DNA from: Bacillota bacterium
GTDB taxonomy: Bacteria; Bacillota; Clostridia; Acetivibrionales; DTU013
Assembly: GCA_023435745.1 (NCBI GenBank)
Contig: JAEZMD010000003.1
Coordinates: 29,923 to 93,922 of the forward strand
Reading direction: 5' to 3'
DNA: 64,000 nt
The translations under genes and the position numbers were made by a program. Each line of letters starts with the position of its first letter. The first letter of the stretch is position 1. Positions 18,947 through 39,547 of the stretch are shown here, in pieces. The notes beneath the pieces were generated by a model, which worked only from the letters and a program-made list of their open reading frames with translations, did not search any database and had not been told where the DNA came from.

Positions 18947-19103
18947 TGGGATTCCTGTGATAACATTAGAATAGGATATGAGCACATTGATTTTAGCTTA
19001 AATGTGATTGATAAATGAATATAAACGGTATAAATATCGTGGGAAATAATAGAAATCTTCGAAGTTGTCCATAATCTCTATAGAGTTTAACAAGGAGGAC
19101 GAT

Positions 19104-20429: not shown

Positions 20430-20502
20430 TGAAGCCGACAGATAAAAAGAAAGAAGATGCTTTGTTTTGCACATAAATGAGAAAATGTCAGGGTCAAAGA
20501 AT

Positions 20503-21114
20503 ATGAGGCTGATTGCAGCTACGAGGAACAAGGGGAAGCTGGAGGAGATCGCACAAATCCTGGAACAGTTTCCCTTCAATGTTGTTTCAATGACCGAGGC
20601 AGGCATGACAGACGATATAGAGGAAACCGGAAGTACCTTTGAGGAAAATGCGCTAATTAAGGCAAAAAAGGTCTGGGAGGCCACAGGCACGGGTGAAATA
20701 GTATTGGCTGACGATTCGGGGCTGGAGGTAGATTATTTGAACGGAGCTCCCGGCGTTTATTCTGCAAGATATGCAGGCGAGGGAGCTTCTGATGCGGATA
20801 GAAACAGGAAGCTTATCGGCGCACTTGCAGGAGTGCCCGCAGACAAAAGAAGCGCAAGATTCGTATGTGCTATAGCGATGGTTTTCCCGGACGATACTGA
20901 TCTTGTTGTCAGAGGAACCTGTGAGGGAATGATTGCATTAGAACCTGCGGGCAGCAATGGCTTTGGATATGATCCGCTGTTTTATATTCCGTCCATTGGA
21001 TTGACAATAGCGCAGATGGATGCGGAAACGAAGAACGGCATAAGCCATCGGGGGAATGCTCTCAGACAGCTGGCTGAAAAGCTGAAGCATATTTGGCAGT
21101 CTTTGGAAGGGTAA
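20503..21114 (+). CDS. rdgB: non-canonical purine NTP pyrophosphatase (RdgB/HAM1)
   Basis: MRLIAATRNKGKLEEI, DDSGLEVDYLNGAPGVYSARYAG, and GFGYDPLFY..SHRG. Start is uncertain (ATG 20485 or 20503). Confidence 0.9.
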   Translation: MRLIAATRNKGKLEEIAQILEQFPFNVVSMTEAGMTDDIEETGSTFEENALIKAKKVWEATGTGEIVLADDSGLEVDYLNGAPGVYSARYAGEGASDADRNRKLIGALAGVPADKRSARFVCAIAMVFPDDTDLVVRGTCEGMIALEPAGSNGFGYDPLFYIPSIGLTIAQMDAETKNGISHRGNALRQLAEKLKHIWQSLEG

Positions 21115-21203
21115 GGAAGTCGGCGGCATGATAAAGCCGACCGGGCGGTTGAGTTATAATTGACTATTAAGATTGGACAGTGTTTTGTGGGGGTTCATGA
21201 TAT

Positions 21204-21683
21204 ATGAAGATTTTGGTTATAAGTGATACGCACGGTGATATTAGTAAGGCTGAAGAAGCCATTAATTTTAATAAAGATATCGATTTGATCATCCATCTCG
21301 GCGATTATTTCAGGGATGCTATGAAACTATCCAACCTGTTTCCGGATATACCTTTTGAGTATATCTATGGCAACAGTGATTTCATGATTGAAAATGTTCC
21401 CGCCGAGAAGCTGCTGGATATATGCGGAAAGAAGATATTTATCACGCATGGGCACAGATATTCTGTTAAGTGGGATTATGAAAAGCTGTTCAGGAAAGCA
21501 GAGGAGCTTAGTGCCGATATGGTCCTGTTTGGACATACTCATTGTCCTGATATAGTGACAAGGGGTCGGCACCTTATTTTAAATCCCGGCAGCACCAGTG
21601 ACCCAAGGGATGATTCTGATGAATCCTATGCGATCATTGAAATTGATAACGAACAGATCAAACCCCGGATATACCGTATCTGA
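21204..21683 (+). CDS. YfcE/YsnB-type metallophosphoesterase
   Basis: MKILVISDTHGD, HLGDY, ITHGHRY and VLFGHTH are calcineurin-like phosphoesterase motifs. 159 aa. Confidence 0.85.
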   Translation: MKILVISDTHGDISKAEEAINFNKDIDLIIHLGDYFRDAMKLSNLFPDIPFEYIYGNSDFMIENVPAEKLLDICGKKIFITHGHRYSVKWDYEKLFRKAEELSADMVLFGHTHCPDIVTRGRHLILNPGSTSDPRDDSDESYAIIEIDNEQIKPRIYRI

Positions 21684-21795: not shown

Positions 21796-24573
21796 ATGCG
21801 GGGTGAAATATTGATACATAATAAACGTTTTTTCAAAGTCCTTTTGATTCCTGTTACTTTTCTTTTAGCAATTACATTGATTTTATCGCCTAAAGTATAT
21901 TCTGCTGATTCAGAGGCCGATGTTACCGTTGAAGTTAAGGGCGGTTTTGATGGAGTGGCAAGACTGGGGGCGTATATTCCCTATAGAATCATGCTCATTA
22001 ATAAGGGAAGGGCTGTTGAGGGAGAAGTACAGGTCGAAATCAAGATTGACAGTCAGAACAAAACCGTTTTCTCCAAGCCGGTATCCCTTGCCGAAGGCGT
22101 TGTCAAGGAGGTAGTAATCGACGCGCCTGTCTTTACCGCAAGAAAAGGAGTAAAGATCAAGTTCCAGGAGAATGGTAAAACCATAAAAGAGTTGGAATAC
22201 AACTTTTTAAAATTAATTCCTCCCGAGATGAAAACCATTGGCGTATTAAGCTCGGATAATGCTGCATACGACTTTTTGAATGGTATGACGATACCACAAT
22301 CAAACGGTGATATGGCATATGATGAAAAAATGAAGCTGATGCAGGCCGCCGGAATGTATCCGGGCGCTTCCGTCGCAACTGCTCAAGCCGTACCGGTTGG
22401 TTCTATAACGGAATCGGAAAGCATACTAATTCCGCTGGACGGTGGGAGCTTTCCTGACGATATCAGGATCATGAATGGGTTTGATATTCTGATTATCAGC
22501 AATTATGATACTGAAACATTGTCTGAAAATCAAATGAGTGTGCTTGAAAGTTGGACCGAGAGCGGAGGCACACTGGTCATTGGAACCGGTGCAAATTGGA
22601 AGAAGGTTTACTCTTCTCTGCCTGAGGCCATGCAAAGGTTTTCTGTATCAGGCACATCCTCCGCCGTTCCGCCGGAAGAGCTGGAAAACTATGCGGGAGC
22701 AGCTTTTTCAGGCGATGTGATTCTTGATACTGTTACGGGGGAGATCGGTTTTGAATATGCACAGCCTGTAGCAGACAGTACGGACGGGTCAAATGAGGAT
22801 GAGAATAACGCGGTCGGCAAGAATGCAAGCGTTGATGCGGATGAAGAGAAGCAATGGGTTTATAGTTCAAATATTGATGAGGTGATCATAGGGGATAGCG
22901 GCAGCCCTCTGGCGGTGAAATATATTCACAAATCCGGGCGGATACTTTTTCTGGCTTTTGATCCCGGAATGGAGCCTGTTGCAAGCTGGCAGGGGAAACA
23001 GTCCTTCTGGGAAAATCTTCTGTATCATAGCGGCAATTCTAACAGAGTATACGAAAGAGGCCGGGGATATTACTATTCCAATCAAGACATCTACTACACG
23101 AACAGTCTGACATCTCAGGTGCCGGACGACAGGACGCCGCCGTTCCTGTTTATGTTTATAACGATCGGAGTATATATCATTATTGCCGGGCCTGCCATGT
23201 ACATCTTCTTGAAGCGAAAGGACAAGAGGGATTTCAGCTGGCTTGCGGTACCTGCTGCTGCTCTATTATGTCTTGTTGTCATATACTTTGTTGGATTTAA
23301 AACAAGATATAAGACAGCGGTTTTTAATACAGCCTCGATGATCCATCTGGATATGGAGAACCAAAAGGCTGATATCACAACAGGTATGGGCATTTTCAAC
23401 AATAAGAGAGGTGATCTGAAGCTCACCTACTCAGATGAGGATAACATAGAGTTTGATGTTACCCAGTCCGAAAATCGTAGTTATGTTGTATATGAGGACG
23501 GGAGGGAGCCTGAGGGCAAGGTCGTAAGCAAGCTTGTGTTCAGTGAACCAATGAATTATATGCTTTATGACGTTTCAATGTGGGAACCCAAATATCTTTC
23601 CGCAAAAAAAAGCGAGCCCTTCACAGATCAAATAATCGGCTCTGTTAAAATTGAGGACGGTAAATTCAGAGCAGTAATAAGCAACAGGACCAAATATGAC
23701 TTTATGGAAGCATTTATCACAGTGGGAAACAACTTTATCAGTGCCGGGGACATCCTTTCAGGGAAAGAAAAAACGATCGAAGCGGATTTTAATTCAGACG
23801 GAGTACTTCATAGCTTTGAGGAATACCTGAACGCACAGTATGGCCGGACAAGCTATCCCTCCAATACGGCGCTTTCTGATGATTTTAAAGAAAGGTACAG
23901 GAAAAGAATGACAGTTGAACAGCTTCTCGAGCCTATGCTCTACAGCCTGAGAGGGCAGACCAAAATAGGGTTGTTCGCATTGAATAATCAAAACCTCGGC
24001 TTTAATATTACAATAAATGATGAGACACCTGTATCCTATTATACAAATGGAATATTTACAAGTGTCGATATGATTTTTGAAAAGGGCAGCGAGGTAGATA
24101 TCCCCGCAGGTGTCATACTACCGCAGATCGATGAATATAGCCAAAACGTTGCAAGTACTGAAGGGGACAACGGAGTCAGAATAAGAAATAAAGGCGATAT
24201 CGATTTTACATATTCACTGCCCGAGGGTATCCTGTCAACCGGATTTTCTCTTAAATTTGATACTTATGTACCTCTTCATGTTAAGTACAATATGGAAGAT
24301 ATGGCGGCGCAAAACAGTAATGTGCAGACAAGGATCCTGCAAAATCAGTATGAATATTTTCTGTATAACAAAGCGTCTGATAACTGGGAGCAAATAGAGG
24401 ACAATCATGGCGTGGCTGAAAAAGCCGATCAATATATTGATGATGAAAACAGGCTCAAGGTCCGCGTAAAGGTAGTGGAAATTGCGGAAGCGGACATGAA
24501 ATCCAATGATGGATATGTCGAGACTGAGCGGCTGGCGTTCCCGGCGCTGCAACTGAAGGGGGTGGTGCGGTAA
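21796..24573 (+). CDS. large envelope protein of unknown function (about 920 aa), possible GldG-like auxiliary component of the adjacent ABC-2 transporter
   Basis: Signal peptide (..FLLAITLILSPKVYSADSE). Two central TM helices lie around 23130..23300, separated by KRKDKRD, giving two large extracytoplasmic halves. The segment DILIISNYDTETLSENQMSVLESWTESGGTLVIGTG resembles ABC-auxiliary/GATase1-like modules. The real start may be TTG 21811 behind GGGGTGA, because TATAAT abuts ATG 21796. The stop overlaps the ABC ATPase start (TAATG). Confidence 0.7.
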   Translation: MRGEILIHNKRFFKVLLIPVTFLLAITLILSPKVYSADSEADVTVEVKGGFDGVARLGAYIPYRIMLINKGRAVEGEVQVEIKIDSQNKTVFSKPVSLAEGVVKEVVIDAPVFTARKGVKIKFQENGKTIKELEYNFLKLIPPEMKTIGVLSSDNAAYDFLNGMTIPQSNGDMAYDEKMKLMQAAGMYPGASVATAQAVPVGSITESESILIPLDGGSFPDDIRIMNGFDILIISNYDTETLSENQMSVLESWTESGGTLVIGTGANWKKVYSSLPEAMQRFSVSGTSSAVPPEELENYAGAAFSGDVILDTVTGEIGFEYAQPVADSTDGSNEDENNAVGKNASVDADEEKQWVYSSNIDEVIIGDSGSPLAVKYIHKSGRILFLAFDPGMEPVASWQGKQSFWENLLYHSGNSNRVYERGRGYYYSNQDIYYTNSLTSQVPDDRTPPFLFMFITIGVYIIIAGPAMYIFLKRKDKRDFSWLAVPAAALLCLVVIYFVGFKTRYKTAVFNTASMIHLDMENQKADITTGMGIFNNKRGDLKLTYSDEDNIEFDVTQSENRSYVVYEDGREPEGKVVSKLVFSEPMNYMLYDVSMWEPKYLSAKKSEPFTDQIIGSVKIEDGKFRAVISNRTKYDFMEAFITVGNNFISAGDILSGKEKTIEADFNSDGVLHSFEEYLNAQYGRTSYPSNTALSDDFKERYRKRMTVEQLLEPMLYSLRGQTKIGLFALNNQNLGFNITINDETPVSYYTNGIFTSVDMIFEKGSEVDIPAGVILPQIDEYSQNVASTEGDNGVRIRNKGDIDFTYSLPEGILSTGFSLKFDTYVPLHVKYNMEDMAAQNSNVQTRILQNQYEYFLYNKASDNWEQIEDNHGVAEKADQYIDDENRLKVRVKVVEIAEADMKSNDGYVETERLAFPALQLKGVVR

Positions 24574-25508
24574 TGCTGAAGATTACAAATCTTGTTAAGA
24601 GGTATGGCAAATTTACCGCAGTCGACAATTTGTCCATGGAAATCAGCGAAGGCCAGATTTTCGGCTTTGTAGGGGCGAACGGAGCGGGGAAAACAACAAC
24701 AATGAGGATTGTTGCCGGGTTATTGCAGCCAACATCCGGAGAAATTCTAGTGGATGGTACAGATATTTTATCCTCCTCGAGAAAAGTGAAAAAGAAGATC
24801 GGATATATGCCCGATTTCTTTGGCGTATATGATGATCTAAAGGTAGTTGAATACATGAATTTCTATTCCGGCATTTATGGAATCCCATACCGCGAAAGGA
24901 AGGGAATATCGGATCAACTGCTGGAGCTGGTTGATCTCAGCCATAAAAAGGATTTTTATGTTGACAGCCTAAGCAGGGGTATGAAGCAAAGGCTTTGCCT
25001 TGCAAGAAGCCTGATCCATGATCCAAGACTGTTAATCCTTGACGAACCGGCTTCAGGACTGGATCCTAGAGCAAGGGTTGAGATGAAAAACATATTAAGA
25101 GAATTGAAAAATATGGGGAAGACCATTCTCATAAGCTCCCACATCCTTTCGGAGCTTGCTGAGATGTGCACAGTCATTGGTATTATTGATAAGGGAAGAC
25201 TGTCTGCTTGTGGGTCGGTTAAGGAAATCATTGATAAACTGACCCGCACGGGGAAACTGAAGATAAAGGTCAGGGACAGGGTGGAGCAAGCCGTAAAATT
25301 GCTGCAGGAGCAGCCTTCTATTGGAGAAATTGTCGTAAATGGAGATATTGTTGAAGCTGATACCGGCGCTGATGAGCAGTTGCTTTCGGAAATGCTTAAG
25401 AGGCTTGTGACCCAGGATATTCCCGTCGTAACCTTTGCACGGGAGGGCGGAAGTCTTGAGTCCGTCTTTATGCAGCTTACGGAAGGGAGTGAAGAACATG
25501 ATGCTTAA
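24573..25508 (+). CDS. ABC transporter ATP-binding protein (ABC-2 type)
   Basis: Walker A GANGAGKTT, signature LSRGMKQRL, Walker B LLILDEPASGLD, H-loop SSHIL, and a C-terminal extension of about 90 aa. Confidence 0.92.
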   Translation: MLKITNLVKRYGKFTAVDNLSMEISEGQIFGFVGANGAGKTTTMRIVAGLLQPTSGEILVDGTDILSSSRKVKKKIGYMPDFFGVYDDLKVVEYMNFYSGIYGIPYRERKGISDQLLELVDLSHKKDFYVDSLSRGMKQRLCLARSLIHDPRLLILDEPASGLDPRARVEMKNILRELKNMGKTILISSHILSELAEMCTVIGIIDKGRLSACGSVKEIIDKLTRTGKLKIKVRDRVEQAVKLLQEQPSIGEIVVNGDIVEADTGADEQLLSEMLKRLVTQDIPVVTFAREGGSLESVFMQLTEGSEEHDA

Positions 25509-26445
25509 CCCCATTATTGAAAAGGATCTGAAAACAAAAATGAGAGGGTGGCGCACACCTATTCTGTTAAGTCTGTATCTGCTGTTTCTGGCGGCTGTTC
25601 TATTTATATTTTTTATATCCAACAACCAGATATACGGCAGATATGGTTACTCGAGCTTCAATCCAAGGATAGCCGTAAATGCTTATAATGTCATAGCTCT
25701 GTTTCAATTCGCACTTCTAATGCTTATTGTACCTGCTCTCACAGCTACTGCTATCAGCGGTGAGAGGGAAAGACAGACATTAGATCTGATGCTTTGCTCC
25801 GATATATCAATATGGTCGGTCATCATGGGAAAGCTTGTTGTGTCCATAGCCCATATAATGTTTCTGGTGGTTGCTTCCCTGCCTGTCTTGGGGATGGTGT
25901 TTCTCTTTGGAGGAATAACCTTTGGAGAGTTGTTGCTCCTGTTTTTGTTCTATCTTATGACTGCACTTATGGTAGCCAGCCTTGGTATTTTTCTGTCAAC
26001 CCTTTTTCGCAGGAACGTTACAGCGATCATTACAGCATACATCAGCCTGGGACTTCTGGGTCTGGGCCCTGTGATAGTGCTGCTCATCTATGGAATATTT
26101 GGTAGTATGCGCAATGTGCAAATCACCTACAGTACCATTGCCGGATTCATGTTTCCTTCACCTGTTTTTGGATTTATATCCTTCATGACAGGCGGGCAAA
26201 GCAGTGTATTTGGAGGCGCTTTCAGCGAAGTACAGAATCTTGCCGACAGGGATACCGGCTGGCTCAGATATTTAAAGCCATGGATGATCAACGGCTTGTT
26301 TAACATTATTTTTTCAGGTATTCTTTTATCTCTAAGTGCGTGGAAGCTGAAACCTGTGAAAAAAATGAAGAGTAAAAGTAAGAGTAAGAACGAGAAAAAA
26401 CAAGAGCAGAAAGAAAATTATCAGCAGACGAAAGCACTAGATTGA
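25498..26445 (+). CDS. ABC-2 family permease (NosY/GldF-like)
   Basis: About 315 aa from ATG 25498, which overlaps the ATPase stop by 11 nt. Six hydrophobic helices and a Lys-rich C-terminal tail. It lies directly after the ATPase. Confidence 0.8.
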   Translation: MMLNPIIEKDLKTKMRGWRTPILLSLYLLFLAAVLFIFFISNNQIYGRYGYSSFNPRIAVNAYNVIALFQFALLMLIVPALTATAISGERERQTLDLMLCSDISIWSVIMGKLVVSIAHIMFLVVASLPVLGMVFLFGGITFGELLLLFLFYLMTALMVASLGIFLSTLFRRNVTAIITAYISLGLLGLGPVIVLLIYGIFGSMRNVQITYSTIAGFMFPSPVFGFISFMTGGQSSVFGGAFSEVQNLADRDTGWLRYLKPWMINGLFNIIFSGILLSLSAWKLKPVKKMKSKSKSKNEKKQEQKENYQQTKALD

Positions 26446-26469
26446 AAGTAAGCTTAAGAAGGTGGGCTG

Positions 26470-28128
26470 ATGTATATAAGAGATATTATAAAGATGCTCA
26501 GGCCTCTGAGAAACCGAATGCATGTCAACTGTGGAATATTTCGGCTTTTAGCCTGCCTGTGTATAGGAGGGGCTGCGGGTATGCTGCTGGCATATGCTTC
26601 ACTTTGGATGCCTGTTCCGTTTCTCATGCGCAGCATACTGTATATCTATGGCGTATCTGCAGTTGCGGGCATAGTTATATCTATATTTTCAATTCCCCGG
26701 ACGAAGGGACTCATTGAGGCTGCTGATGCTCTTGGACTTAAGGAAAGATTGATCACTGCATGGCAGCTTAAGGAGGAAGATACCGTTATTGCCGAATTAC
26801 AGAGGCGTGATACGATTAAAGCTGTCTCATCTGCCGATTTTAAAAGACTCTATCCCATACGGTTCCCTGCGAAGCTGGGCGTTGTACTCGGGGCTTGTAT
26901 TGTACTTACATCCGTATCATTTATCATACCGGCGTATGCACGCGAGACAGCTGAGCAGATAGAGAAGCTGCAGGGAGTAGTTGAGGAACAGCTTGAAGAA
27001 TTGGAGAAGGTAAGTGAAGAGCTAAAAAACAACGGAGATCTGGAGCAGGCTGAGTTGGACAGAATCCTTGATGAAGCGGCAAGGCTCACAGAGGAGCTTA
27101 AGCGGGCAAGAACTGAAGAGGAGGCAATGAAGGCGCTATCCCGGGCTGAAAATGAACTCGAGAAGCTGGATATGCAAAAGCAGCTCAGCAAGCTGGGAGA
27201 TGCAATGAACCAAAATGATATGACAAGCGGTATCGGAAAAGCGGTTCAGGACGGAAATATGACCGATTTGAAGCAAGCGCTGGAGCAGCTGAAGCAGCAG
27301 CTTGAGCAGGGTGAAATATCATCCCGGGAGCTTGCGGAAATGCTTGAGCAGGCAGCTGAGCGGATGGAGAACAAGGAACTGGCAGAGAAACTGGAGCAGG
27401 CGGCCGAAGGGCTTGGTTCCGACGCTATAGAGGATCAGAATGCAGCGCTGGGAAGTCTGGGAGATGCACTGTCGGACATGATGAGTTCACAGGAGGGCAA
27501 TGGCATAGGACAGGCTGTTGGAAAGCTTTCCCAGGCTGTGCAACAGGCTAAGAGCAGCGTGTCTCAGGTGGACAGCAATATATCAGCAGGTAATGGATAC
27601 AGCCCGGGAGAGTCGGGACAAGGATCAGGTCAGCCATCGGGACTTCAGGCTGCGCAGGGGGACGGGCAGTCGTCAGGCTCAGGCGAGGGCACAGGTTCAG
27701 GCCAGGGCACAGGTTCAAGCCAGACAGGTCAAGGCCAGGGACAAGGCCAGGGAAAGGGAGCAGGTCAAGGCGGCAGCTCGGGAGCAGGAGAAGGCTCAAC
27801 CAACAAGGATTCGGGATATACAGGAAGCGAGGGCTACGGAGGCGGACGCAAAGCAGGTGAGGGCAGGGAAGAAGAATTTGAGATGCTATACGATCCTGAG
27901 CACTTGGGAGGAGACGCCGATCCCAGCTATGTCACCGGGCAGAAGCAAGATGGCGGACAAAGCAGCTATTCACAGACGGATCAGATTCCTGCTGAAAAAG
28001 GAGCAATCCTGCCTTATCATGAGGTGTTAAACCGATATGGAGAGAAAGCTGCATCATATATTGAGGAGACAGAGATTCCTCCGGCGATGAAGGAAATTGT
28101 TCGAGAGTATTTTAAATCATTGGAGTAG
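26470..28128 (+). CDS. membrane-anchored coiled-coil protein with Gly/Ser/Gln low-complexity region, unknown function
   Basis: 552 aa. Three N-terminal hydrophobic helices are followed by a heptad-rich acidic coiled coil of about 200 aa (..EQLEELEKVSEELKNNGDLEQAELDRILDEAARLTEELKRA..). A GQGSGQ...GQGQGQGQGKGAGQGGSSGAGEG tract follows, then a short conserved-looking C-terminal end. Confidence 0.7.
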   Translation: MYIRDIIKMLRPLRNRMHVNCGIFRLLACLCIGGAAGMLLAYASLWMPVPFLMRSILYIYGVSAVAGIVISIFSIPRTKGLIEAADALGLKERLITAWQLKEEDTVIAELQRRDTIKAVSSADFKRLYPIRFPAKLGVVLGACIVLTSVSFIIPAYARETAEQIEKLQGVVEEQLEELEKVSEELKNNGDLEQAELDRILDEAARLTEELKRARTEEEAMKALSRAENELEKLDMQKQLSKLGDAMNQNDMTSGIGKAVQDGNMTDLKQALEQLKQQLEQGEISSRELAEMLEQAAERMENKELAEKLEQAAEGLGSDAIEDQNAALGSLGDALSDMMSSQEGNGIGQAVGKLSQAVQQAKSSVSQVDSNISAGNGYSPGESGQGSGQPSGLQAAQGDGQSSGSGEGTGSGQGTGSSQTGQGQGQGQGKGAGQGGSSGAGEGSTNKDSGYTGSEGYGGGRKAGEGREEEFEMLYDPEHLGGDADPSYVTGQKQDGGQSSYSQTDQIPAEKGAILPYHEVLNRYGEKAASYIEETEIPPAMKEIVREYFKSLE

Positions 28129-28140
28129 GGGGGACAGGAG

Positions 28141-29124
28141 TTGGATATCAATGAAAAGGATATTCTGCAGGTTACGGAAACAGTGCAAAAAATTGAGTCG
28201 GAAGTTGCAAAGCAAATGGTCGGACAAAAGGAGCTTATCCGACAGGTGCTGATTTGCATGCTGGCCGGAGGAAATATTCTTCTGGAGGGCGTACCGGGAT
28301 TGGGCAAGACCCGTCTTGTAAATACTCTCGGGCAGGTTATGGGGCTTCAGTTCTCCAGAATCCAGTTTACACCGGATCTGATGCCTGCCGACGTGGTGGG
28401 GACCAATATTATCACAAGGGATCAATCGGAACACGGAATGTTTAAATTTCAGCAGGGACCCATATTCAGCAACATTGTACTGGCGGACGAGATAAACCGT
28501 GCAACTCCGAAGACCCAGAGCGCTATGCTGCAGGCAATGCAGGAAAAGCTTGTCACCGTAGCTAATACAACTTATCAGCTTCCAAAGCCCTTCTTTGTCC
28601 TTGCAACGCAGAACCCCATAGAAATGGAAGGAACCTATCCGTTACCTGAAGCGCAAATGGACAGGTTTTTGTTTAAGCTGAACGTGCCTTTTCCTTCCGC
28701 ACAGGAACTGGCCGAAATAGTCACCATGACAACAGGAAGTATCCGGACAGAGCTGAGAGCGGTAACGGGAAGTGATGAACTGATGAGCATTATGGAAACA
28801 GTGAAGGAAATACCTGTGGCGGTGCCGGTCCTGGACTTTGCTTTGAAGCTTGTGCTGGCAACTCACCCCGGAACTAAAGATGCAGCCGCAATTGCTGAGA
28901 AATATGTACGTTTTGGAGCAAGCCCCCGCGGAGCACAGGCGATAATATCTACGTCAAAAGTCAGAGCGGTGCTTGAGGGCCGCTACAATGTCGCGTTCGA
29001 AGATATTTACTACACAGCATACCCCGCCCTTCGACATCGTTTGTTTATGAATTTTGAAGGTTCATCGGAAGGTCTGACAGCGGATGACATCATTTCGGAA
29101 ATAATCAAGGAGATAGGCAGGTAG
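28141..29124 (+). CDS. MoxR-family AAA+ ATPase (AAA_3)
   Basis: VGQKELIRQVLICMLAGGNILLEGVPGLGKT (Walker A), ILADEINRATPKTQSAMLQAMQE (Walker B region), ATQNPIEMEGTYPLPEAQMDRF. TTG start 6 nt after GGGGGGA. Confidence 0.92.
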   Translation: MDINEKDILQVTETVQKIESEVAKQMVGQKELIRQVLICMLAGGNILLEGVPGLGKTRLVNTLGQVMGLQFSRIQFTPDLMPADVVGTNIITRDQSEHGMFKFQQGPIFSNIVLADEINRATPKTQSAMLQAMQEKLVTVANTTYQLPKPFFVLATQNPIEMEGTYPLPEAQMDRFLFKLNVPFPSAQELAEIVTMTTGSIRTELRAVTGSDELMSIMETVKEIPVAVPVLDFALKLVLATHPGTKDAAAIAEKYVRFGASPRGAQAIISTSKVRAVLEGRYNVAFEDIYYTAYPALRHRLFMNFEGSSEGLTADDIISEIIKEIGR

Positions 29125-29126
29125 AA

Positions 29127-29987
29127 ATGAGCCAATTATTTGACAGTACATTTCTGCAGAAAATACAACGGCTTTCGCTAAACGCCCGATTTCTACTGGA
29201 CGGCGCGGCTGCCGGCAACCGTAAATCGCGAAGCAAGGGAAGCTCTGTGGAATTTTCCGATTACCGTGAGTATGCACCCGGGGATGATTTCCGGCGACTG
29301 GACTGGAATGCGTATGGCAGATTCGAAAAGCTTTTTATCAAGCTCTTTATGGAGGAAAGAGAAGCTCCTGTTACTATTTTTCTCGATGTAAGCAGGTCAA
29401 TGGATTGGGGCGAACCGAATAAATCGATTTCCTCCAGAAGGCTGACCGCCGCATTGGCATATATCAGCCTCGCCAATTTCGACAGGGTGACCATGTGTTG
29501 TATTGATGAGCGTCAGCGGCAAATGTGCAGTAATGTGCGGGGCAAAAACTTCTTCCACAGGATTACAGATATTCTTGAGAACATTCAATTTACAGGAAGC
29601 AGCAGTATTCAAAAGGCTGTAGAAGACTGCCGCATACGATGGGCACGCGGTATTACGGTTCTGATTTCTGATTTTTTCACCCGGGGGGATATCGGTGAAT
29701 TATTAAAATATCTCTCATACCACAAACAGACAGTGTATGTATGTCATATACTCAGTCCCCAGGAGCTCCGACCGGATGTCAGTGAATCTGTCAGGCTTGT
29801 TGACAGTGAAACCGGTGAGACGATGGATATAACAGTGACGCCTTCTCTTTTAGACTTGTATGGAAGGGCGCTGGATCATTTCAGGAGCCGGATTGAGAAA
29901 AACTGTACCAAATGGGGAGCTTTTTATTTTCATTTTTCCTCCGAAGCTGCGGTGGAGGAGATGGTAAAGGAAGTGGCAGAGCATTGA
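29127..29987 (+). CDS. DUF58-family protein (MoxR partner)
   Basis: GSSVEFSDYREYAPGDDFRRLDWNAYGRFEKLFIKLF is the hallmark DUF58 motif. The gene starts 2 nt after the MoxR stop. Confidence 0.88.
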   Translation: MSQLFDSTFLQKIQRLSLNARFLLDGAAAGNRKSRSKGSSVEFSDYREYAPGDDFRRLDWNAYGRFEKLFIKLFMEEREAPVTIFLDVSRSMDWGEPNKSISSRRLTAALAYISLANFDRVTMCCIDERQRQMCSNVRGKNFFHRITDILENIQFTGSSSIQKAVEDCRIRWARGITVLISDFFTRGDIGELLKYLSYHKQTVYVCHILSPQELRPDVSESVRLVDSETGETMDITVTPSLLDLYGRALDHFRSRIEKNCTKWGAFYFHFSSEAAVEEMVKEVAEH

Positions 29988-31804
29988 TTTTGCACAATCC
30001 ATGGGGACTTCTTGCGTTGCTGGCCGTACCTGTGATTATCCTTTTGTATCTATTAAAGCAGAAGCATGAGGAGTACATCACATCCAGCCTTCAGCTATGG
30101 CAGAGCGCCTTGCAGGATGTAGAAGCTAATGCGCCATGGCAGAGATTAAAGAAAAACATACTGATGATTATTCAGATATTCGCTGTCATACTCCTGGCAA
30201 TGATACTGTCGGAGCCTTTCCTTCAAGGCGGAGGCAATAAGGGCGGATCAGTTATGCTTGTAATAGACTGCTCGCTGAGCATGCAGTCCACCGATATGCA
30301 GCCGAGCAGATTTGAAGCAGCTAAAAAGGACGCTTTGAAGCTGGTGGAAGCCGGCAGCCCGGGAACAAGCTTTTCACTGATTGCTTCCGCCCATACGCCA
30401 TCTATTATTTTTCACAAAGTCAATGATAAAAACAGAGCGATACAGGAAATAAAAAATCTGAAAGTGATTGATACGGCTGAGAATCCGGAGAAAACGGCAG
30501 AATTGGTAAATTCGCTTATCAGAGAGGATCCGGGAATACAGACAAGCTGGTTCAGCGACGGAGTCCGCTCCACTCTAGCAGATAGTGCCAGTTACTACTC
30601 CTACAACAGAAATGGTGATAATTACGCAGTAACGCTGCTTGCACAACGCAAGCTGCAAAGCGGCCGGAGAATTGCGGCGCTGAGCCGGATTGCAAATTTT
30701 TCACTGCACGAGGCAGAATTGGATGTCAGCCTTTATGCAGACGGGAATTTTGTTGATGCCCGCAGGGTATCTGTTGAGGCCGGAAAAAGTGAAAGCGTTT
30801 ATTGGGACGGCATACCTGAATCGGCTTTGAAGCTGGAATGTACTATTGATACAGAAGATGTTCTGATGAAGGATAATACCGCAGGGGTGACGGTTTATTC
30901 AAACAAATCGGCAAGGGTGCTGCTTGCAACAGAAAAAAATATATTTTTGGAAAAGGTACTGACCCTGATACCAGGTCTGGAGCTATACAGAACAGACATG
31001 GAGGATATGGAGGCGTTTACGGGATATGATTTATACGTTTTTGACGGAGAAATACCTGAGGAACTGCCCGATGACGGACATGTCGTGCTTTTTAATCCGC
31101 CCCAAAACAGGTACTTTTCCTCTGTGGGCCTGTCCGAATACACCGAAATTCATTCTACAGATCATGAGATCTATAATAATCTGAAGCAGGAAATTTCCTT
31201 CAATGCTTTGAAAACAGATTTGTATCAACTGCCCGAGTGGGGTGTTCCGCTTATGGAAGATAACAATGGATTCACAGCCTTTGAAGGCTATATAAAGAAC
31301 AGGCGGATCATGGTTTTCGGCTTTGATCTGCATGAAACCAACCTGCCGGTGCAGCCGTTCTTCCCTGTAATTATGACAAGGGCTATACAGGAGCTGCTTC
31401 CGGGTGATGTCAATAAAATCTCTGCAGTAAATGCCGGAGACGCTATTGAGCTTTCGATTGACCCTGAATCAAAAGAAGTATACGTGATAGCCCCGGACGG
31501 GAATAAAACGCTGATAGCTCCGCCGTTTCCGGCGACCGCTTTTGATGAAACAACACAGATCGGATCTTATACAATAGAACAGCGGCTGGAAAATGAGACT
31601 GAAAATCAGCGGTTTTTTGTGAATGCGCCTTCGGAGAGAGAATTTGCTTTGTCAAACAGGACTGAAGCCGATGAGCCAAATCATGGAGCGGATGCACGAA
31701 GTATGCCGCCTGTCGGATGGAGCCTGAAAACACCCTTATTATGGCTGCTGCTGGCGATATTATTAATAGAATGGTGGGTTTATACCAATGGCATTACAGT
31801 TTGA
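29984..31804 (+). CDS. BatA-like membrane protein with von Willebrand factor A domain
   Basis: The N-terminal double-TM aerotolerance-type motif (LHNPWGLLALLAVPVIILLYLLKQK) begins at TTG 29984, which overlaps the DUF58 stop as TTGA. The ORF-track start 29912 would overlap DUF58 by 76 nt. vWA MIDAS motif VMLVIDCSLSM and a C-terminal TM anchor are present. Confidence 0.8.
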   Translation: MILHNPWGLLALLAVPVIILLYLLKQKHEEYITSSLQLWQSALQDVEANAPWQRLKKNILMIIQIFAVILLAMILSEPFLQGGGNKGGSVMLVIDCSLSMQSTDMQPSRFEAAKKDALKLVEAGSPGTSFSLIASAHTPSIIFHKVNDKNRAIQEIKNLKVIDTAENPEKTAELVNSLIREDPGIQTSWFSDGVRSTLADSASYYSYNRNGDNYAVTLLAQRKLQSGRRIAALSRIANFSLHEAELDVSLYADGNFVDARRVSVEAGKSESVYWDGIPESALKLECTIDTEDVLMKDNTAGVTVYSNKSARVLLATEKNIFLEKVLTLIPGLELYRTDMEDMEAFTGYDLYVFDGEIPEELPDDGHVVLFNPPQNRYFSSVGLSEYTEIHSTDHEIYNNLKQEISFNALKTDLYQLPEWGVPLMEDNNGFTAFEGYIKNRRIMVFGFDLHETNLPVQPFFPVIMTRAIQELLPGDVNKISAVNAGDAIELSIDPESKEVYVIAPDGNKTLIAPPFPATAFDETTQIGSYTIEQRLENETENQRFFVNAPSEREFALSNRTEADEPNHGADARSMPPVGWSLKTPLLWLLLAILLIEWWVYTNGITV

Positions 31805-34487
31805 AAATCCATGGCTGCTGCTGCTCATAATACCTGCGGCTGCATTTATGTATTATACTGCAAAGAACATGATTCGGCTGGTGCGTTGGAGAAGGACATC
31901 CATTGTGCTGGTTCGCAGTCTTGTTCTGCTGTTGGTTATTTTACTCCTTTCCGGCGTTTCATTACTGCAGGTCTCTTCTTCGACGACTACCTTGTTTCTG
32001 GTGGATTCTTCGGACAGTATACTTCAGAAGGAGCAGAGCGCCGACTTTGTCAGCGATGCAATAAAAAGTATGGGGAGAAAGGATGAGGCAGGGGTCATCA
32101 ATTTTGGCGGCAGCTCATCCATTGAAGTGCTTCCGGTGAAAAATCCACTGTTTGACGGTTTGCAAACGTACATTGATTCTTCTTTCACCGATATGGAAAA
32201 TGCCCTTCTATCTGCCCAGTCCATTATACCGTGGGATCATCAGAAGAGAGTGGTACTTCTGACCGATGGGAGAGAGAACACGGGGAATGCAATACGACAG
32301 GTCAGACAGATGAGAGCAAAGGGCTACGCTGTCGACGTCTACCCGATCAGCTCAGGCTTTTGGAACGAGGTTCAGCTTCAGGAGCTGAAGATACCGAATT
32401 CAGTTCATTTGAATGAACAATTCGAGATTGCCGTTAACGTAAAAAGCAACATAAACACCAAGGCTGTTCTTCAATTGTACAGTAACCGTATGTTGACTGC
32501 GCAAAAAGAGGTTGTGCTAAATAAAGGAGAAAATCAATTTATTTTTTTGGATAAGGCTTCGGATGGGGGAATGGTGACATACAGAGCGGAGGTACTCGCC
32601 GATACTGATACTGTTACGCAGAACAATACTCTTTCCTCCTACACCTATGTCAAGGATATTCCTCAGATCATGGTAATCCAGGATGCTGATGAAGCAGGTG
32701 AAAACATTGCGGATATTTTGAATACCGATATGCGGGTGACTTTACTCAATCCAAAACAGGTTCCTGTTGAGCTGGCAGAATTGCTTAAGTACGACGCCTT
32801 TGTACTGGCCAATGTTTCTGCCGACAGTCTTAATCAGACTTTTCTCGACAATATGGAAACGGCTGTAAGCCATCAGGGTAAGGGTCTGCTTGTGACAGGC
32901 GGAGATAACAGCTATGGTCCGGGAGGCTATTATAAAACCACACTGGAGAAGCTGCTGCCTGTCAATATGGATATTAAGCCAAAGGAAGAAGAGCCGAACC
33001 TGGCGCTTATGCTTGTTATTGACAAATCAGGGAGCATGTCAGGAGGAGATTTTGGTATTGCAAAGATGGAGCTGGCAAGGGAGGCGGCGATACGATCAAC
33101 AGAGGTGCTCAACCAGAATGATATGATTGGAGTGCTTACTTTTGACGATGCATATAAATGGGTCGTAGAGCCTCAGAGCCTTGATAATTTGCAGGCTATT
33201 CAGGATGCGATCGGTACAATCCGCTCCGGCGGAGGCACTCAGATACTTCCCCCGCTGGAAGCTGCATATAATGCAATACAGGAACTGGATACCAAACTTA
33301 AACACATTATTCTTTTAACAGACGGTCAGGCGGAGAAGGAAGGGTATGAGCCTTTGATCGAAGGCTTAAGGGAAAAGGAAATTACACTTTCAACGGTGGC
33401 GGTAGGCCGGGGGGCTGATTCTCTTCTGATGAAGGCGCTTGCTTACGGAGGTAAAGGAAGGTTTTATCAGACGGATGAATTCACCGATATTCCGAAGATT
33501 TTTGCAAAGGAGGTGTTTTTGGCAGGGAAAAAATATCTCACCAACAGGACGTTTGCCCCCAGAGCCGCCGGCTCCTCAGATATTCTTAAAGGCATTGATT
33601 CGGTGCCGCAGCTTGACGGATATGTTACAACCACAGCAAAACAAACAGCAAATGTAATACTGGAAAGCGATGAGGAGGATCCTGTTCTGGCAAGCTGGCA
33701 ATATGGACTTGGCAGGACCGTCGCCTGGACACCTGATGCTCAGGGGATCTGGACATATGACTGGATGAATTGGGAGGATTCAGGGAAGTTTTGGAAGAAT
33801 ACGATATCCTGGCTGGTTCAGCAGAACATGAGTCAGGGGTATACCGTAGAATCTGATATTGAAGGCAGGGTGGGCTCAATAACAGTTAAGGCTGAGGATG
33901 ACGCATTTATGACGGCGACTGATGTCAAGGGGACCCTCGTTGGGCCTGACGGCAGCAAACAGGATATTGAGCTGTTGCCCGGAGCCCCGGGAGAGTACAG
34001 TGGTTCCTTCAGCAACCTCAAAAGCGGTGTTTATATTGCGGACATTACACTTACAGGCAGTGGTGAAAGAAGCGAACGAATCAGTACAGGCCTGATCATG
34101 CCTTATTCGGCGGAATATAATTTGCTGGAGGGCAGCAATGAGGCGCTGCTTCAAAGGATCGCACATGAGGGAGGCGGACGCATGCTTGACGATCCTGCCC
34201 AGGTCTTTAACAGTGCATTGCCGCCGGTTGAAGGGAAAGCAGATCCCACTCATGCGCTATATAAAACTGTATTTATTCTATTTATGCTTGATATTGCGCT
34301 CAGACGGCTCAATTTACATGTGAATTTGTGGAAGAAAAAACCGGTGCAAGCGGTGGCCGCAGGTAATGCTGCTGCGGCTCCGGGTAAGGCTGTGGAATCT
34401 GCGAATAAATCAGTTAAGCCGGACCAAGAACAATATTCTCACATTTCCAGGTTGTTGGATAAGAAACAGATGTGGCGTAAGAAGTAA
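31788..34487 (+). CDS. BatA/BatB-like membrane protein with two vWA domains and a Trp-rich C-terminal module
   Basis: The N-terminus MALQFENPWLLLLIIPAAAFMYY is the same double-TM motif. MIDAS motifs are LFLVDSSDS and LMLVIDKSGSMSG. A Trp-rich module (LASWQYGLGRTVAWTPD..WMNWEDSGKFWKNTISWL) and a C-terminal TM anchor follow. The start overlaps the previous gene by 17 nt. Confidence 0.8.
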   Translation: MALQFENPWLLLLIIPAAAFMYYTAKNMIRLVRWRRTSIVLVRSLVLLLVILLLSGVSLLQVSSSTTTLFLVDSSDSILQKEQSADFVSDAIKSMGRKDEAGVINFGGSSSIEVLPVKNPLFDGLQTYIDSSFTDMENALLSAQSIIPWDHQKRVVLLTDGRENTGNAIRQVRQMRAKGYAVDVYPISSGFWNEVQLQELKIPNSVHLNEQFEIAVNVKSNINTKAVLQLYSNRMLTAQKEVVLNKGENQFIFLDKASDGGMVTYRAEVLADTDTVTQNNTLSSYTYVKDIPQIMVIQDADEAGENIADILNTDMRVTLLNPKQVPVELAELLKYDAFVLANVSADSLNQTFLDNMETAVSHQGKGLLVTGGDNSYGPGGYYKTTLEKLLPVNMDIKPKEEEPNLALMLVIDKSGSMSGGDFGIAKMELAREAAIRSTEVLNQNDMIGVLTFDDAYKWVVEPQSLDNLQAIQDAIGTIRSGGGTQILPPLEAAYNAIQELDTKLKHIILLTDGQAEKEGYEPLIEGLREKEITLSTVAVGRGADSLLMKALAYGGKGRFYQTDEFTDIPKIFAKEVFLAGKKYLTNRTFAPRAAGSSDILKGIDSVPQLDGYVTTTAKQTANVILESDEEDPVLASWQYGLGRTVAWTPDAQGIWTYDWMNWEDSGKFWKNTISWLVQQNMSQGYTVESDIEGRVGSITVKAEDDAFMTATDVKGTLVGPDGSKQDIELLPGAPGEYSGSFSNLKSGVYIADITLTGSGERSERISTGLIMPYSAEYNLLEGSNEALLQRIAHEGGGRMLDDPAQVFNSALPPVEGKADPTHALYKTVFILFMLDIALRRLNLHVNLWKKKPVQAVAAGNAAAAPGKAVESANKSVKPDQEQYSHISRLLDKKQMWRKK

Positions 34488-34646
34488 CAACATCCCCCAG
34501 GCTGCAGTTACGAATCCGCAAATCTCGCAGAGAAACAATACATAAAATAAAAATATGAAGTATTGGAGGAATTAACCTGTAATTGTAGAATTATTAATCT
34601 GATTTACTATTCGGGAAACGGCCGGAAGGTTACAGATATTAGTTTT

Positions 34647-36413
34647 ATGAATAATATTTACAGGTTTATTCAAAAACGGATGGAAGTCCTTAAAATAAGC
34701 ACAAAAATAATGCTGTTTTATTTTATTCTGCTCATGTTTACTATTGCGGTGAGCAGCTTTTTTTACCAGCGGATATATTACAATATTATATCCGGCAAAG
34801 TTAGCGAAATGTCCATGCAAACCCTCTACTCCATCAGTGCTAATATTGATTCGGTCATTGAAAATGCCGACAACTATTCAAAAGCGATCTTTACCAACGA
34901 CGACCTTCAGAACATGCTGAAAGGCTCAAAGCCTTATATGGATCTCGTCACACAGGAAAGGGTCAGGGCTTATCTCATCAAACTCACTGAAACGATACCC
35001 AGTATAACTTCGGTATACCTTTTTGATAATTACGGCAACAGATTCTCAATGGACAAAGCTACTAATAAAAACCTCACAATAAGCAACATATCCAGGGCAT
35101 CCTGGTACAGGCAAGTCAGCCAAAGCAGAGGATACTATATTCTTCGGCTCAATGCCGGAGGGGTTTTTGAAAAAACAAACAAAGAAAATTACTTATCTCT
35201 GATCAGGGTCATAAACGATCTGCAGGATCAGCAGCCCATAGGGATCATTATCATTAACCTGCCGGAGGCTTCTTTTATAAACGCATACAGTGATCTGGTC
35301 AGCAAATATGGAATGCAGGTCATTTTACTTGACGAGAATAATGAGAAAATAATTGGGACCGGAAGCGAGGAATTTGACAGCTTCATACCCGGTATAACCG
35401 ACGGCAGTGAGTCAAATACCAGGATTGTTAGAATCAATAATCAGGAATTCCTGATGTCATATCTTAAAATAAATTACAATTGGAAAATAATCAGTGTCGC
35501 TCCCTTCAGCGAACTGTCCAGAGAATCAAAGATTTTCAGTCTCATAGCCTTTATTGTAATCATACTCAACAGCGTCCTGCTGTTTCTGGGATCAATTTTT
35601 ATATCCAGACTCATCACAAACCCCGTTAAAAAGCTTTTACGTGCAATGAAAGGCGTTGAAAATAATGAATTCGGCATGGTGGATCTGAGAATGGGCAGCA
35701 GTGAATTTGAGAAGCTGCAGGACGGTTACAACAGAATGGTCACTGAAATACAAAAGCTGATCAAAAGGATCATGGAAGAACAGAAAATCAAACGAAAGGC
35801 TGAGCTTGACGTGCTTCAGGCTCAAATTAAACCCCATTTCCTGTACAACACCTTCGATGCGATCAGCTACCTCGCGCTCGAAGGCAGGAGCGAGGAAGTA
35901 TATACAATAATGAAGGCGCTGGGGAGCTACTATAGGACGAGTCTAAACAAAGGAAGCGAAGTAATCACTCTGAAGGAAGAGGTAGAGGTAGTAAGAAACT
36001 ATCTGACGATACAAAAGATCAGGTACAACGATATATTTACCGACAGCTATGATATTGAAACCGAGATAGAAAATATCAGGATATTGAAGCTCGTCCTGCA
36101 GCCGCTGGCTGAAAATGCTCTTTACCACGGGATCAAGCCCAGTGGGGAACCGGGACATATCGGGATAACAGCTGTAAAGGAAGGCGAATTTATTAAAATA
36201 ACCGTTAAGGACAATGGTGTTGGAATGCCGGAGGAAAGCATAAAAAATATATTCAACGGCAGAAAAAGCTGTGAAGAAACAAGCTTCGGGCTCAAAGGTA
36301 CCATTGAACGGCTGCGGATTTTTTACGGGGTCGAAAATGTATTGTCCATTGTGAGTACACCCGGCGGCGGGACCGAGGTTATACTGACGATACCGGCGGA
36401 AAGGCGGGATTAG
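34647..36413 (+). CDS. YesM-type sensor histidine kinase
   Basis: Two TM helices flank an extracellular domain of about 270 aa. Then come HAMP, the H-box QIKPHFLYNTFD, and HATPase_c (LQPLAENALYHG, VKDNGVGM, FGLKG). Start is uncertain (34563 TTG, 34647 ATG or 34680 ATG). Confidence 0.85.
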   Translation: MNNIYRFIQKRMEVLKISTKIMLFYFILLMFTIAVSSFFYQRIYYNIISGKVSEMSMQTLYSISANIDSVIENADNYSKAIFTNDDLQNMLKGSKPYMDLVTQERVRAYLIKLTETIPSITSVYLFDNYGNRFSMDKATNKNLTISNISRASWYRQVSQSRGYYILRLNAGGVFEKTNKENYLSLIRVINDLQDQQPIGIIIINLPEASFINAYSDLVSKYGMQVILLDENNEKIIGTGSEEFDSFIPGITDGSESNTRIVRINNQEFLMSYLKINYNWKIISVAPFSELSRESKIFSLIAFIVIILNSVLLFLGSIFISRLITNPVKKLLRAMKGVENNEFGMVDLRMGSSEFEKLQDGYNRMVTEIQKLIKRIMEEQKIKRKAELDVLQAQIKPHFLYNTFDAISYLALEGRSEEVYTIMKALGSYYRTSLNKGSEVITLKEEVEVVRNYLTIQKIRYNDIFTDSYDIETEIENIRILKLVLQPLAENALYHGIKPSGEPGHIGITAVKEGEFIKITVKDNGVGMPEESIKNIFNGRKSCEETSFGLKGTIERLRIFYGVENVLSIVSTPGGGTEVILTIPAERRD

Positions 36414-39486: not shown

Positions 39487-39547
39487 TCAGGTTACCAATC
39501 AGATTTAAGTAAGTTATCAATCAAATTACAGTATGAAGTAGAGCCGA

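Follow-up and report, generated by a model that had tools for sequence, protein, structure and literature searches.

This study concerns a putative envelope operon in a 64,000-nt stretch of DNA (hereafter, the window) from a Bacillota bacterium of the clostridial lineage DTU013 (contig JAEZMD010000003.1). The operon occupies positions 21796–34487 and consists of eight co-directional open reading frames (ORFs), all on the + strand and designated g1–g8; their coordinates and every junction distance, as given in an earlier note made from the sequence, were reproduced exactly. The first gene, g1 (21796..24573), encodes a membrane protein of 925 amino acids (aa). It is followed by g2 (24573..25508), an ABC ATPase of the DrrA/GldA-like ABC-2 type; g3 (25498..26445), an ABC-2 permease with a Lys-rich C-terminal tail; g4 (26470..28128), a 552-aa protein with three transmembrane (TM) segments; g5 (28141..29124), a MoxR AAA+ ATPase; g6 (29127..29987), a vWA-like DUF58 protein; g7 (29984..31804), a BatA-type protein of 606 aa; and g8 (31788..34487), a BatA-type paralog of g7 with 899 aa. 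From g1/g2 to g7/g8, the junctions measure, in order, −1 (TAATG), −11, +24, +12, +2, −4 (TTGA), and −17 nt.

The domain calls previously made for the eight genes were reproduced by profile searches against Pfam and NCBIfam. In the case of g2, Pfam ABC_tran was matched at 1e-32, with GANGAGKT as Walker A and LLILDEP as Walker B, and among the NCBIfam models, the drrA subfamily scored best and GldA next, both under cutoff. The permease g3 matched ABC2_membrane_2 (Pfam, 6e-12). In g5, PF07726 (AAA_3) was matched at 1.3e-62 and PF17863 (AAA_lid_2) at 8.7e-17, with GVPGLGKT and IVLADE as Walker A and Walker B; these motifs are intact and conserved in both ATPases, g2 and g5. After the 2-nt gap, g6 matched PF01882 (DUF58) at 2.4e-31. 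The g7 protein matched PF07584 (BatA, 2.9e-14) and VWA_2, and its score for the TIGR02226 double-TM domain was 26.0 bits against a cutoff of 23.05. Two VWA domains and GATase1_like (PF07090, 1.2e-13, residues 598–677) were found in g8. For g1 and g4, no family exceeded the threshold in Pfam or NCBIfam. The three DxSxS motifs of a metal-ion-dependent adhesion site (MIDAS) that had been noted earlier in g7 (D95) and g8 (D73 and D412) were present and invariant in 76–80 orthologs. Moreover, a fourth invariant motif of this kind (D87/S89/S91) was found in g6.

Besides its TM segments, the g4 protein has a helical E/K/L-rich stretch, a G/Q/S low-complexity region, and a conserved C-terminus (..IPxxMKxxVxxYFxxLE). 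This architecture is common to 62 orthologs, in which eight residues are invariant; four of them form a predicted cytoplasmic motif, D86-x5-E92-R93-x2-T96, and three lie near the C-terminus (P537, Y547, and F548). The only matches of g4 in the PDB were designed coiled coils.

Translation of g1 may start five codons downstream of the first ATG, at TTG 21811. The ATG at 21796 lacks a Shine–Dalgarno sequence and is overlapped by a TATAAT, and the TTG is preceded by GGGGTGA at a spacing of 5 nt. The length of 920 aa reported earlier is correct for the TTG start but not for the ATG, from which g1 has 925 aa. Shine–Dalgarno-like purine runs were observed 5′ of g2–g8, and the TTG start of g7 at 29984 was supported because the BatA profile alignment begins at residue 1. 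The earlier statement that no hairpin terminator lies inside the operon stands in that none was convincing, although weak terminator-like hairpins appeared in a consensus scan. The best of them on the + strand within the operon, at 25903–25929 in the middle of g3, has an 11-bp stem followed by TTGTTGCT; inside the permease coding sequence, it is probably not functional. No convincing terminator was found in the 75-nt gap 3′ of g8, and the fold of 34470–34660 was no better than that of shuffled sequences (z = −0.75). No Rfam family matched anywhere in the window, so there was no match to a leader RNA or riboswitch.

The topology of the proteins was predicted from hydropathy and the positive-inside rule, with AlphaFold2 (AF2) models for g1 and g8. 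Instead of the bitopic layout proposed previously, g1 is predicted to have a signal peptide with a cleavage-like YSA/D site followed by about 410 aa of ectodomain; a TM hairpin then separates this part from a second ectodomain, which is beta-rich and about 420 aa long. The hairpin spans residues 450–504 (23143..23307), with the TM part at 450–501 and KRKDKRD as its cytoplasmic turn, in both the topology analysis and the AF2 model. For g4, a TM hairpin, a basic cytoplasmic segment (residues 71–135), a third TM segment, and a long helical, G/Q/S-rich part outside are predicted. The g7 protein comprises an N-terminal double TM, a vWA domain (MIDAS D95), a beta-sandwich, a GATase1-like domain, a further beta-sandwich, and a C-terminal TM segment. 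In both g7 and g8, a short N-terminus outside, a basic cytoplasmic loop, a large external part, and a C-terminal TM segment are predicted, with a basic tail in g8. Neither a signal peptide nor a TM segment was found in g5 and g6, which are predicted to be cytoplasmic; the earlier claim that every non-ATPase component is membrane-anchored fails for the DUF58 protein. In the BatA-like protein BB0173 of Borrelia, the vWA domain was placed in the periplasm by experiment (PMC5700661). From this precedent and the positive-inside rule, we infer that the vWA and GATase1-like parts of g7 and g8 lie outside the membrane.

A recurring C-terminal module in g1, g7, and g8 had been proposed in the earlier note, together with profile alignment as the test that could refute it, and the alignment upheld it (P 1.3e-5). 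The module is real; however, it is the tail of a larger unit composed of a beta-sandwich and a GATase1-like/DUF4350 domain. The comparisons were made with hhalign, using family alignments built from the collected loci. When residues 399–583 (vWA2) were omitted from g8, residues 1–596 of g7 aligned with it over 558 columns (probability 99.3, E 9e-21). By this alignment, g7 and g8 are full-length paralogs, with vWA2 added in g8.

In g8, vWA1 (residues 57–190; 31956..32357) carries the MIDAS residues D73/S75/S77 and is of the Bat type, as judged from Foldseek and from profile matches to BatB (3ibs) and the aerotolerance-related 4jdu. The GATase1-like domain follows in two halves. The N-terminal half (residues 293–398; 32664..32981) was assigned from DUF7408, the model, and the correspondence of residues 323–397 with residues 37–113 of 3rht. 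The C-terminal half (residues 584–680; 33537..33827) includes the motif DPVLASWQYGLGRTVAWTPD..GKFWKNTISWL and the PF07090 match, and was aligned to two further solved GATase1-like proteins, with residues 598–679 corresponding to 174–255 of 2gk3 and residues 605–674 to 174–243 of 3soz. Between the halves lies vWA2 (residues 405–580; 33000..33527), with D412/S414/S416, T484, and D512 at its MIDAS. The AF2 model of g8 showed the same order of secondary-structure blocks as the solved matches. Because the GATase1-like matches are split into two pieces flanking vWA2 and the model agrees, vWA2 is an insertion within the GATase1-like domain.

The corresponding unit of g1 begins with a CARDB/Ig-like beta-sandwich (residues 43–136; 21922..22203), which was recognized from the secondary structure of the model and from the alignment of g1 77–265 with g8 213–371 (P 2e-4). 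It continues with a GATase1-like (DUF4350/DUF7408) domain (residues 140–415; 22213..23040) that includes the previously noted motif PLAVKYIHKSGRILFLAFDPG..ASWQGKQSFWENLL. The GATase1-like domain of g8 without vWA2 aligned with g1 206–410 over 175 columns (probability 80.8, P 1.3e-5), and five unrelated families used as controls gave P ≥ 0.12. This alignment pairs the two previously noted motifs exactly. Moreover, g1 and g8 showed weak Pfam matches to one stretch of DUF7408 (positions 35–84 and 35–90), and g1 showed a weak profile match to 3soz on the same C-terminal segment. Among 45 g1 homologs, DUF7408 was matched by 42 and DUF4350 by 34, with sporadic matches to ThuA, GH42M, GATase1_like, and DUF4159; the best DUF4350 (PF14258) match was 8e-6, one homolog was pre-annotated with this family, and the g1 of the window did not reach E 0.1. 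The AF2 model of g1 (pLDDT 81.6) matched the ThuA-like structure 1t0b with a Foldseek probability of 1.0. With the full-length models, g1 returned mostly multi-domain noise (transglutaminases and GH2), with ThuA-like and mu-homology matches only at the domain level; vWA matches dominated for g8, and no solved homologous complex was found for either. Because the GATase1-like regions of g1 and g8 contain no invariant Cys or His, these domains are considered non-catalytic, and the Cys–His–Glu triad of class I glutamine amidotransferases was not found among the invariant columns. As judged from these profile and model comparisons, the unit of beta-sandwich and GATase1-like domain occurs three times in the operon, in g1, g7, and g8.

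The linkage of the eight genes was surveyed from g8 alone, so that the ABC genes were not presupposed. With an alignment of 16 g8 homologs as the query, relatives of g8 were found in at least 531 of 185,579 species-level genomes, and the best 80 of these 531 genome matches were inspected with 10 kb on each side. Gene content was determined by phmmer comparison of the eight window proteins with six-frame ORFs, which gave 60 distinct informative loci. One duplicate was counted once. Its two copies (L006 and L061) are 100% identical and mirror-symmetric on one contig of 205,650 nt (DUMB01000040.1, 20755–43358 reversed and 162293–184896), and this contig looks like a palindromic assembly artefact.

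Three arrangements were observed. The complete set stood in the order g1–g8 in 44 of the 60 loci; 13 loci had g1-g2-g3-g4-g7-g8 without MoxR and DUF58, with g4 abutting g7; and three had only g6-g7-g8, downstream of iscR-iscS-iscU-mnmA. Contig-truncated loci were all compatible with these arrangements. In total, g1–g4 were found directly upstream of g7–g8 in 57 of 60 loci, and the tight or overlapping junctions g1/g2, g2/g3, g6/g7, and g7/g8 recurred in distant loci. The hosts without MoxR/DUF58 were Epulonipiscium, Lachnospiraceae, Defluviitaleaceae, Anaerotignaceae, and Clostridium sp. ASF356 from the mouse gut (NZ_CP097810.1); loci of this kind include L054, L055, L058, L060, L066, L068, L069, L076–L079, and L081–L083.

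These counts bear on the simplest alternative, namely that the region holds two independent neighbours, one consisting of an ABC-2 exporter and its DUF4350 accessory (g1–g3, perhaps g4) and the other of a Bat-like set (g5–g8). Each half resembles a module that stands alone elsewhere, as in Bat operons and ABC-2/GldG-type transporters, and the g3/g4, g4/g5, and g5/g6 junctions are looser than the others. In addition, 1–1.4 kb of extra small genes separate g3 and g4 in L001/L070 (14386–15373), L013, L051, and L053 (hosts Sporosalibacterium, Vallitaleaceae, and one metagenome-assembled genome); one of the inserted genes is a DUF1232 gene and the rest are without family. Three loci, moreover, have g6–g8 without the ABC genes. 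However, g1–g4 were kept upstream of g7–g8 in unrelated contexts, the genes that go missing are those for MoxR and DUF58, after which g4 abuts g7, and the ectodomain of g1 is common to g7 and g8. The notion of two neighbours is largely refuted by synteny and is considered very improbable.

The neighbourhood check supported the earlier proposal of a single system, in that the ABC and vWA genes stood together in 57 of 60 loci with variable genomic contexts. The boundary drawn in that proposal had to be moved: there is one system, but rather than into an ABC half and a MoxR half, it divides into a core (g1–g4 and g7–g8) and a separable MoxR/DUF58 pair. As judged from gene order and content, the eight genes are one inherited unit with this division. 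Because the pair is separable and missing in 13 loci, the description of the system as driven by two different ATPases is not general.

All named carriers are anaerobic Clostridia. They include Acetivibrio, Thermoclostridium, Ruminiclostridium, Petroclostridium, Vallitaleaceae, Epulonipiscium, Lachnospiraceae, and Defluviitaleaceae, as well as Tissierellales, Thermohalobacter, Sporosalibacterium, Wukongibacter, Proteiniborus, and strain ASF356. Starting from g1 gave a similar picture, as every g1-anchored operon examined (56, 35, 22, 22, and 19% identity) had the full set, and a metagenome scan with a single g1 protein found three loci, each with the full operon. A further homolog search, with the g1 alignment as the query, returned the 50 proteins already obtained and one marginal match. 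The g1 family comprises 9,808 clusters (50% identity, E up to 1e-3), with 2,322 at E up to 1e-30. A 705-aa protein (L085, 10001–12118) also matched the g1 family hidden Markov model (HMM) with E 6e-40; the match extends over the GATase1-like domain and the TM hairpin and takes in part of the C-terminal domain. The surroundings of this protein look planctomycete-like (N_methyl/SBP_bac_10, ECF sigma), and the other seven genes were absent within 10 kb. The full set was also present in CP003065.1, the complete genome of Acetivibrio clariflavus DSM 19732, at about 494.5–507.2 kb. There, the operon is followed directly (L087, 14168–19567) by a transposase gene (Transposase_mut/MULE) and by a small ORF carrying a GIIM (group II intron maturase) domain.

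The MoxR/DUF58 pair resembles the cytoplasmic MoxR–vWA pairs NorQ/NorD, CbbQ/CbbO, and RavA/ViaA in that a MoxR protein with intact Walker motifs is encoded beside a soluble vWA-like protein with a MIDAS. The clostridial pair differs in being absent from 13 of 60 loci and in that the other vWA domains of the operon are predicted to be extracytoplasmic. Such pairs raise the alternative that the operon encodes a machine for metal-centre or cofactor insertion and maturation of an extracytoplasmic or membrane enzyme, with MoxR/DUF58 acting like NorQ/NorD or CoxD/E/F. The ABC-2 transporter and g1 could then be compared with NosFY–NosD, in which an ABC-2-type complex powers a periplasmic maturation factor. 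The Pfam family of g3, ABC2_membrane_2, also includes NosY, and the four invariant MIDAS motifs suit such a role. MoxR with a MIDAS-bearing vWA partner is the hallmark of these chaperones (PMC9976466 and PMC13036017). On the other hand, no client enzyme of the NorQD, CbbQO, or CoxDEF type was conserved outside the eight genes in about 65 loci, the 13 loci without MoxR/DUF58 keep everything else, and no metallochaperone or beta-helix NosD-like domain was found among the eight proteins with Pfam and NCBIfam. A maturation machine is thus regarded as unlikely.

The operon was also compared with Bat clusters, with which it shares a MoxR (AAA_3) protein and DUF58 followed by BatA double-TM proteins with MIDAS vWA domains. 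The N-terminus of g8 is paralogous to g7, its vWA1 matches BatB 3ibs and 4jdu, and the vWA domain is predicted to face outward, as for BB0173 (PMC5700661). However, g7 and g8, with 606 and 899 aa, far exceed the Bat proteins in length and carry beta-sandwich and GATase1-like domains. Further components are integral to the clostridial operon and more constant in it than MoxR/DUF58, namely an ABC-2 transporter, a coiled-coil/low-complexity protein, and a DUF4350-like protein. Its hosts are Gram-positive, unlike those of the Bat clusters (Bacteroidota and Spirochaetes) and of two operons considered further below, RL3499–RL3502 and PA4317-23. No TPR partner of the BatB/C/E type and no BatD was found among the eight proteins with Pfam and NCBIfam, and no conserved extra gene adjoins the operon.

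Given the BatA domain, the Bat-type vWA1, and carriers that are all anaerobic Clostridia, the operon might be a Bat-type aerotolerance or oxidative-stress system of anaerobes, in which the vWA proteins have no role in transport. The Bat operon of B. fragilis was defined by reduced aerotolerance, as it is cited in PMC5700661. That reading leaves the obligate ABC-2, g1, and g4 partners unexplained, and the TPR proteins of the BatB–E type are absent from the eight proteins (Pfam). Moreover, PMC3557215 states in its abstract that no specific function had been shown for Bat proteins experimentally. A pure aerotolerance system is accordingly held to be quite unlikely.

The closest precedent for the clostridial operon is the archaeal arCOG01314 system, composed of a DUF4350/GldG-like ectoprotein with MoxR, vWA, and Ig-like membrane proteins, which Makarova, Galperin and Koonin (2015; PMC5898192) predicted to be a complex for secretion or membrane remodelling. 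In the part of that article describing the system, a membrane-anchored, flavodoxin/GATase1-like DUF4350 ectoprotein is linked to MoxR (COG0714) and a vWA protein, as the candidate DUF4350 protein g1 is to g5 and g6 outside the 13 loci without this pair, and most components are predicted to be extracytoplasmic. The same part reports no ABC transporter and no BatA-type double-TM vWA proteins for the archaeal system, and the clostridial g1 adds to the ectoprotein described there a TM hairpin and a 420-aa C-terminal domain. Ig-like S-layer-type proteins (COG4743/PF07760) had no Pfam match among the eight proteins, in which beta-sandwiches occur only inside g1, g7, and g8.

In the case of GldAFG of Flavobacterium, the likeness is that of an ABC-2 ATPase and permease with a large membrane-anchored, GATase1/flavodoxin-like extracytoplasmic protein. 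The gene order differs, gliding and type IX secretion system (T9SS) genes are absent, and the clostridial hosts are Gram-positive. The scores of g2 for the GldA equivalog TIGR03522 (232.4 bits, cutoff 402.6) and of g3 for the GldF equivalog TIGR03518 (32 bits, cutoff 288.5) fell below cutoff, with the drrA subfamily scoring higher for g2. GldG (TIGR03521/ABC_transp_aux) was matched by neither g1 nor its 45 homologs at E up to 1 in NCBIfam and 0.1 in Pfam; in this test, the homologs matched only related-fold families (DUF4350, DUF7408, ThuA, and GH42M). Thus, the term GldG-like used for the module in the earlier note holds at the level of fold or clan and architecture, but the GldA, GldF, and GldG models all fail. 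Another comparison concerns DUF4175/TIGR02302, low-complexity membrane proteins of Alphaproteobacteria. Like these, g4 has two or three N-terminal TM segments followed by a long Gln/Gly-rich low-complexity region predicted to lie outside. However, the g4 of the window did not match DUF4175 (PF13779), and only three of 62 orthologs did so at E < 0.01 (best 6.7e-8), in compositionally biased low-complexity/coiled-coil sequence.

A literature search found no paper on a clostridial ABC-linked operon, in line with the earlier note, in which no description of the two halves within one operon of a spore-forming Firmicute was known. The ABC-2-linked form is apparently new relative to the Bat-like and DUF4350–MoxR–vWA systems and, although widespread in Clostridia, apparently undescribed.

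The genes surrounding the operon in the window were also identified. Upstream (16475–21683) lie genes for QueH, an AMIN-domain N-acetylmuramoyl-L-alanine amidase, a GerM-like protein with two Germane domains, a Ham1/RdgB NTP pyrophosphatase, and a YfcE/YsnB-like phosphoesterase, and none of these is conserved next to the operon elsewhere. An arrangement of the gerM...rdgB-ysnB type is known from spore formers. Downstream (34563–48404), a YesM/YesN-type dCache histidine kinase, an AraC-type response regulator, and a sugar ABC importer are encoded, and a low-GC stretch (34–36%) at 42–46 kb holds two further genes for AraC-family regulators along with genes resembling those of sugar-phosphate isomerases/oxidoreductases. 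This region looks like a carbohydrate-utilization region unrelated to the operon. No conserved ninth gene was found next to the operon in the surveyed loci, and the window flanks recurred only in the closest relative.

The upstream genes, namely the GerM-like gene, the AMIN amidase, and the rdgB/ysnB-like pair, together with spore-forming hosts, could suggest an accessory apparatus of sporulation or germination. However, these neighbours were conserved beside the operon in no other locus, and the sequences 5′ of g1, read by eye, showed sigma-A-like TGnTATAAT elements in many loci and not sigma-E/K/F/G-like boxes. The sporulation link was rejected since the flanks are not conserved, and such a role is considered highly improbable. 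An anti-phage or conflict system of the MoxR–vWA ternary type was also considered, as g5 has a secondary match to bpMoxR (PF20030, 9e-12). The AAA_3 match of g5 is far stronger (1e-62), no effector domains were found, and the operon is conserved at the species level in varied housekeeping contexts. In PADLOC, nothing beyond generic ATPase similarity came up, with no match for g1, g3, g4, g6, g7, and g8; the defence reading was rejected since nothing specific was returned, and its probability is put close to nil.

The reading preferred here is that of one conserved clostridial system of the cytoplasmic membrane, with a core and a MoxR/DUF58 accessory and a role at the envelope, and its probability is estimated at about 60%. 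The core would consist of g1–g4 and g7–g8 in the cytoplasmic membrane, that is, the ABC-2 transporter (g2 and g3), the ectoproteins g1, g7, and g8, and g4 as a 3-TM protein with a long helical, low-complexity extracytoplasmic arm. The g7 and g8 proteins would expose three metal-binding (MIDAS) vWA domains outside the membrane, and the homologous ecto-modules of g1, g7, and g8 may associate with one another and with the permease to form a platform. ATP hydrolysis by g2 would drive substrate export or a conformational change or movement, and the MIDAS sites may engage an acidic ligand located in the wall or at the surface. From the cytoplasm, MoxR (g5) and DUF58 (g6) would serve as an AAA+/vWA remodelling pair dedicated to assembling or resetting the membrane complex, as an accessory and not as part of the core. 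This role is proposed because of the analogy with pairs of the NorQ/NorD type, which are described as remodelling chaperones (PMC9976466 and PMC13036017). The sequence analysis shows the gene content, the conserved linkage, the paralogy, and the invariance of the motifs; the topology, the physical association of the proteins, the substrate, the part played by MoxR/DUF58, and the phenotype are inferred.

The physiological output would most likely be maintenance or remodelling of the cell envelope. Mutation of the MoxR–DUF58–membrane protein operon RL3499–RL3502 in Rhizobium leguminosarum gave envelope and morphology defects, as cited in PMC5700661, and PA4317-23 of P. aeruginosa, with a MoxR-like ATPase and a vWF-domain protein, was found in a screen for defence against interbacterial antagonism (PMC8926400). 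By analogy, an envelope-maintenance role would fit both. The earlier term, an envelope assembly or remodelling machine, is retained in this conditional sense; one system with a shared domain is supported, but the drive by two ATPases is not general.

Several observations weigh against this system or against parts of it. The survey covers the best 80 of the 531 genome matches. In L033 (Petroclostridium sp. X23, NZ_CP124862.1), L034, and L043, DUF58-g7-g8 stand alone (about 3400–12800), and the 7 kb upstream contain neither ABC genes nor g4 nor MoxR; the vWA proteins can therefore be encoded apart from a nearby ABC half. The homology of g1 and g8, with a probability of 81% in profile alignment, is moderate and not decisive. 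Moreover, direct contact of MoxR with the exported vWA domains of g7 and g8 is unlikely because MoxR/DUF58 are predicted inside and those domains outside. In loci without MoxR/DUF58, the conservation of the cytoplasmic loop of g7 and of the cytoplasmic motif of g4 is just as strong, and for this reason neither can be claimed as a docking site for the pair.

A more specific version of the preferred reading is put forward tentatively, as a possibility that may well prove wrong. In this version, the Bat-type vWA proteins would be the extracytoplasmic working parts of an ABC-2 transporter, with g1, g7, and g8 forming a hetero-oligomeric platform on the permease. The ABC ATPase would power export or mechanical work at wall or surface ligands bound by the MIDAS sites, and MoxR/DUF58 would only assemble or reset the complex.

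To our knowledge, few conserved gene sets that lack a known mechanism are as widespread as the MoxR–DUF58–BatA/vWA clusters. MoxR–DUF58–BatA ("Bat") systems were first described in 1999 and are still unexplained, and the phenotypes reported for them concern aerotolerance, the integrity of the envelope, and defence against antagonistic bacteria. Across a large clostridial clade, an ABC-2 transporter, a coiled-coil protein, and a DUF4350-like ectoprotein accompany the vWA membrane proteins more tightly than MoxR does. This tie points to the transporter and the shared ecto-domain as the place to seek the function, and offers concrete, testable partners. If the ABC-2/vWA platform is real, it would provide the first mechanistic handle on Bat systems and would define, for Gram-positive bacteria, a new class of envelope machine with two ATPases. 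Once found, the function would annotate thousands of genes, in carriers that include the cellulolytic Acetivibrio and the mouse-gut strain ASF356.

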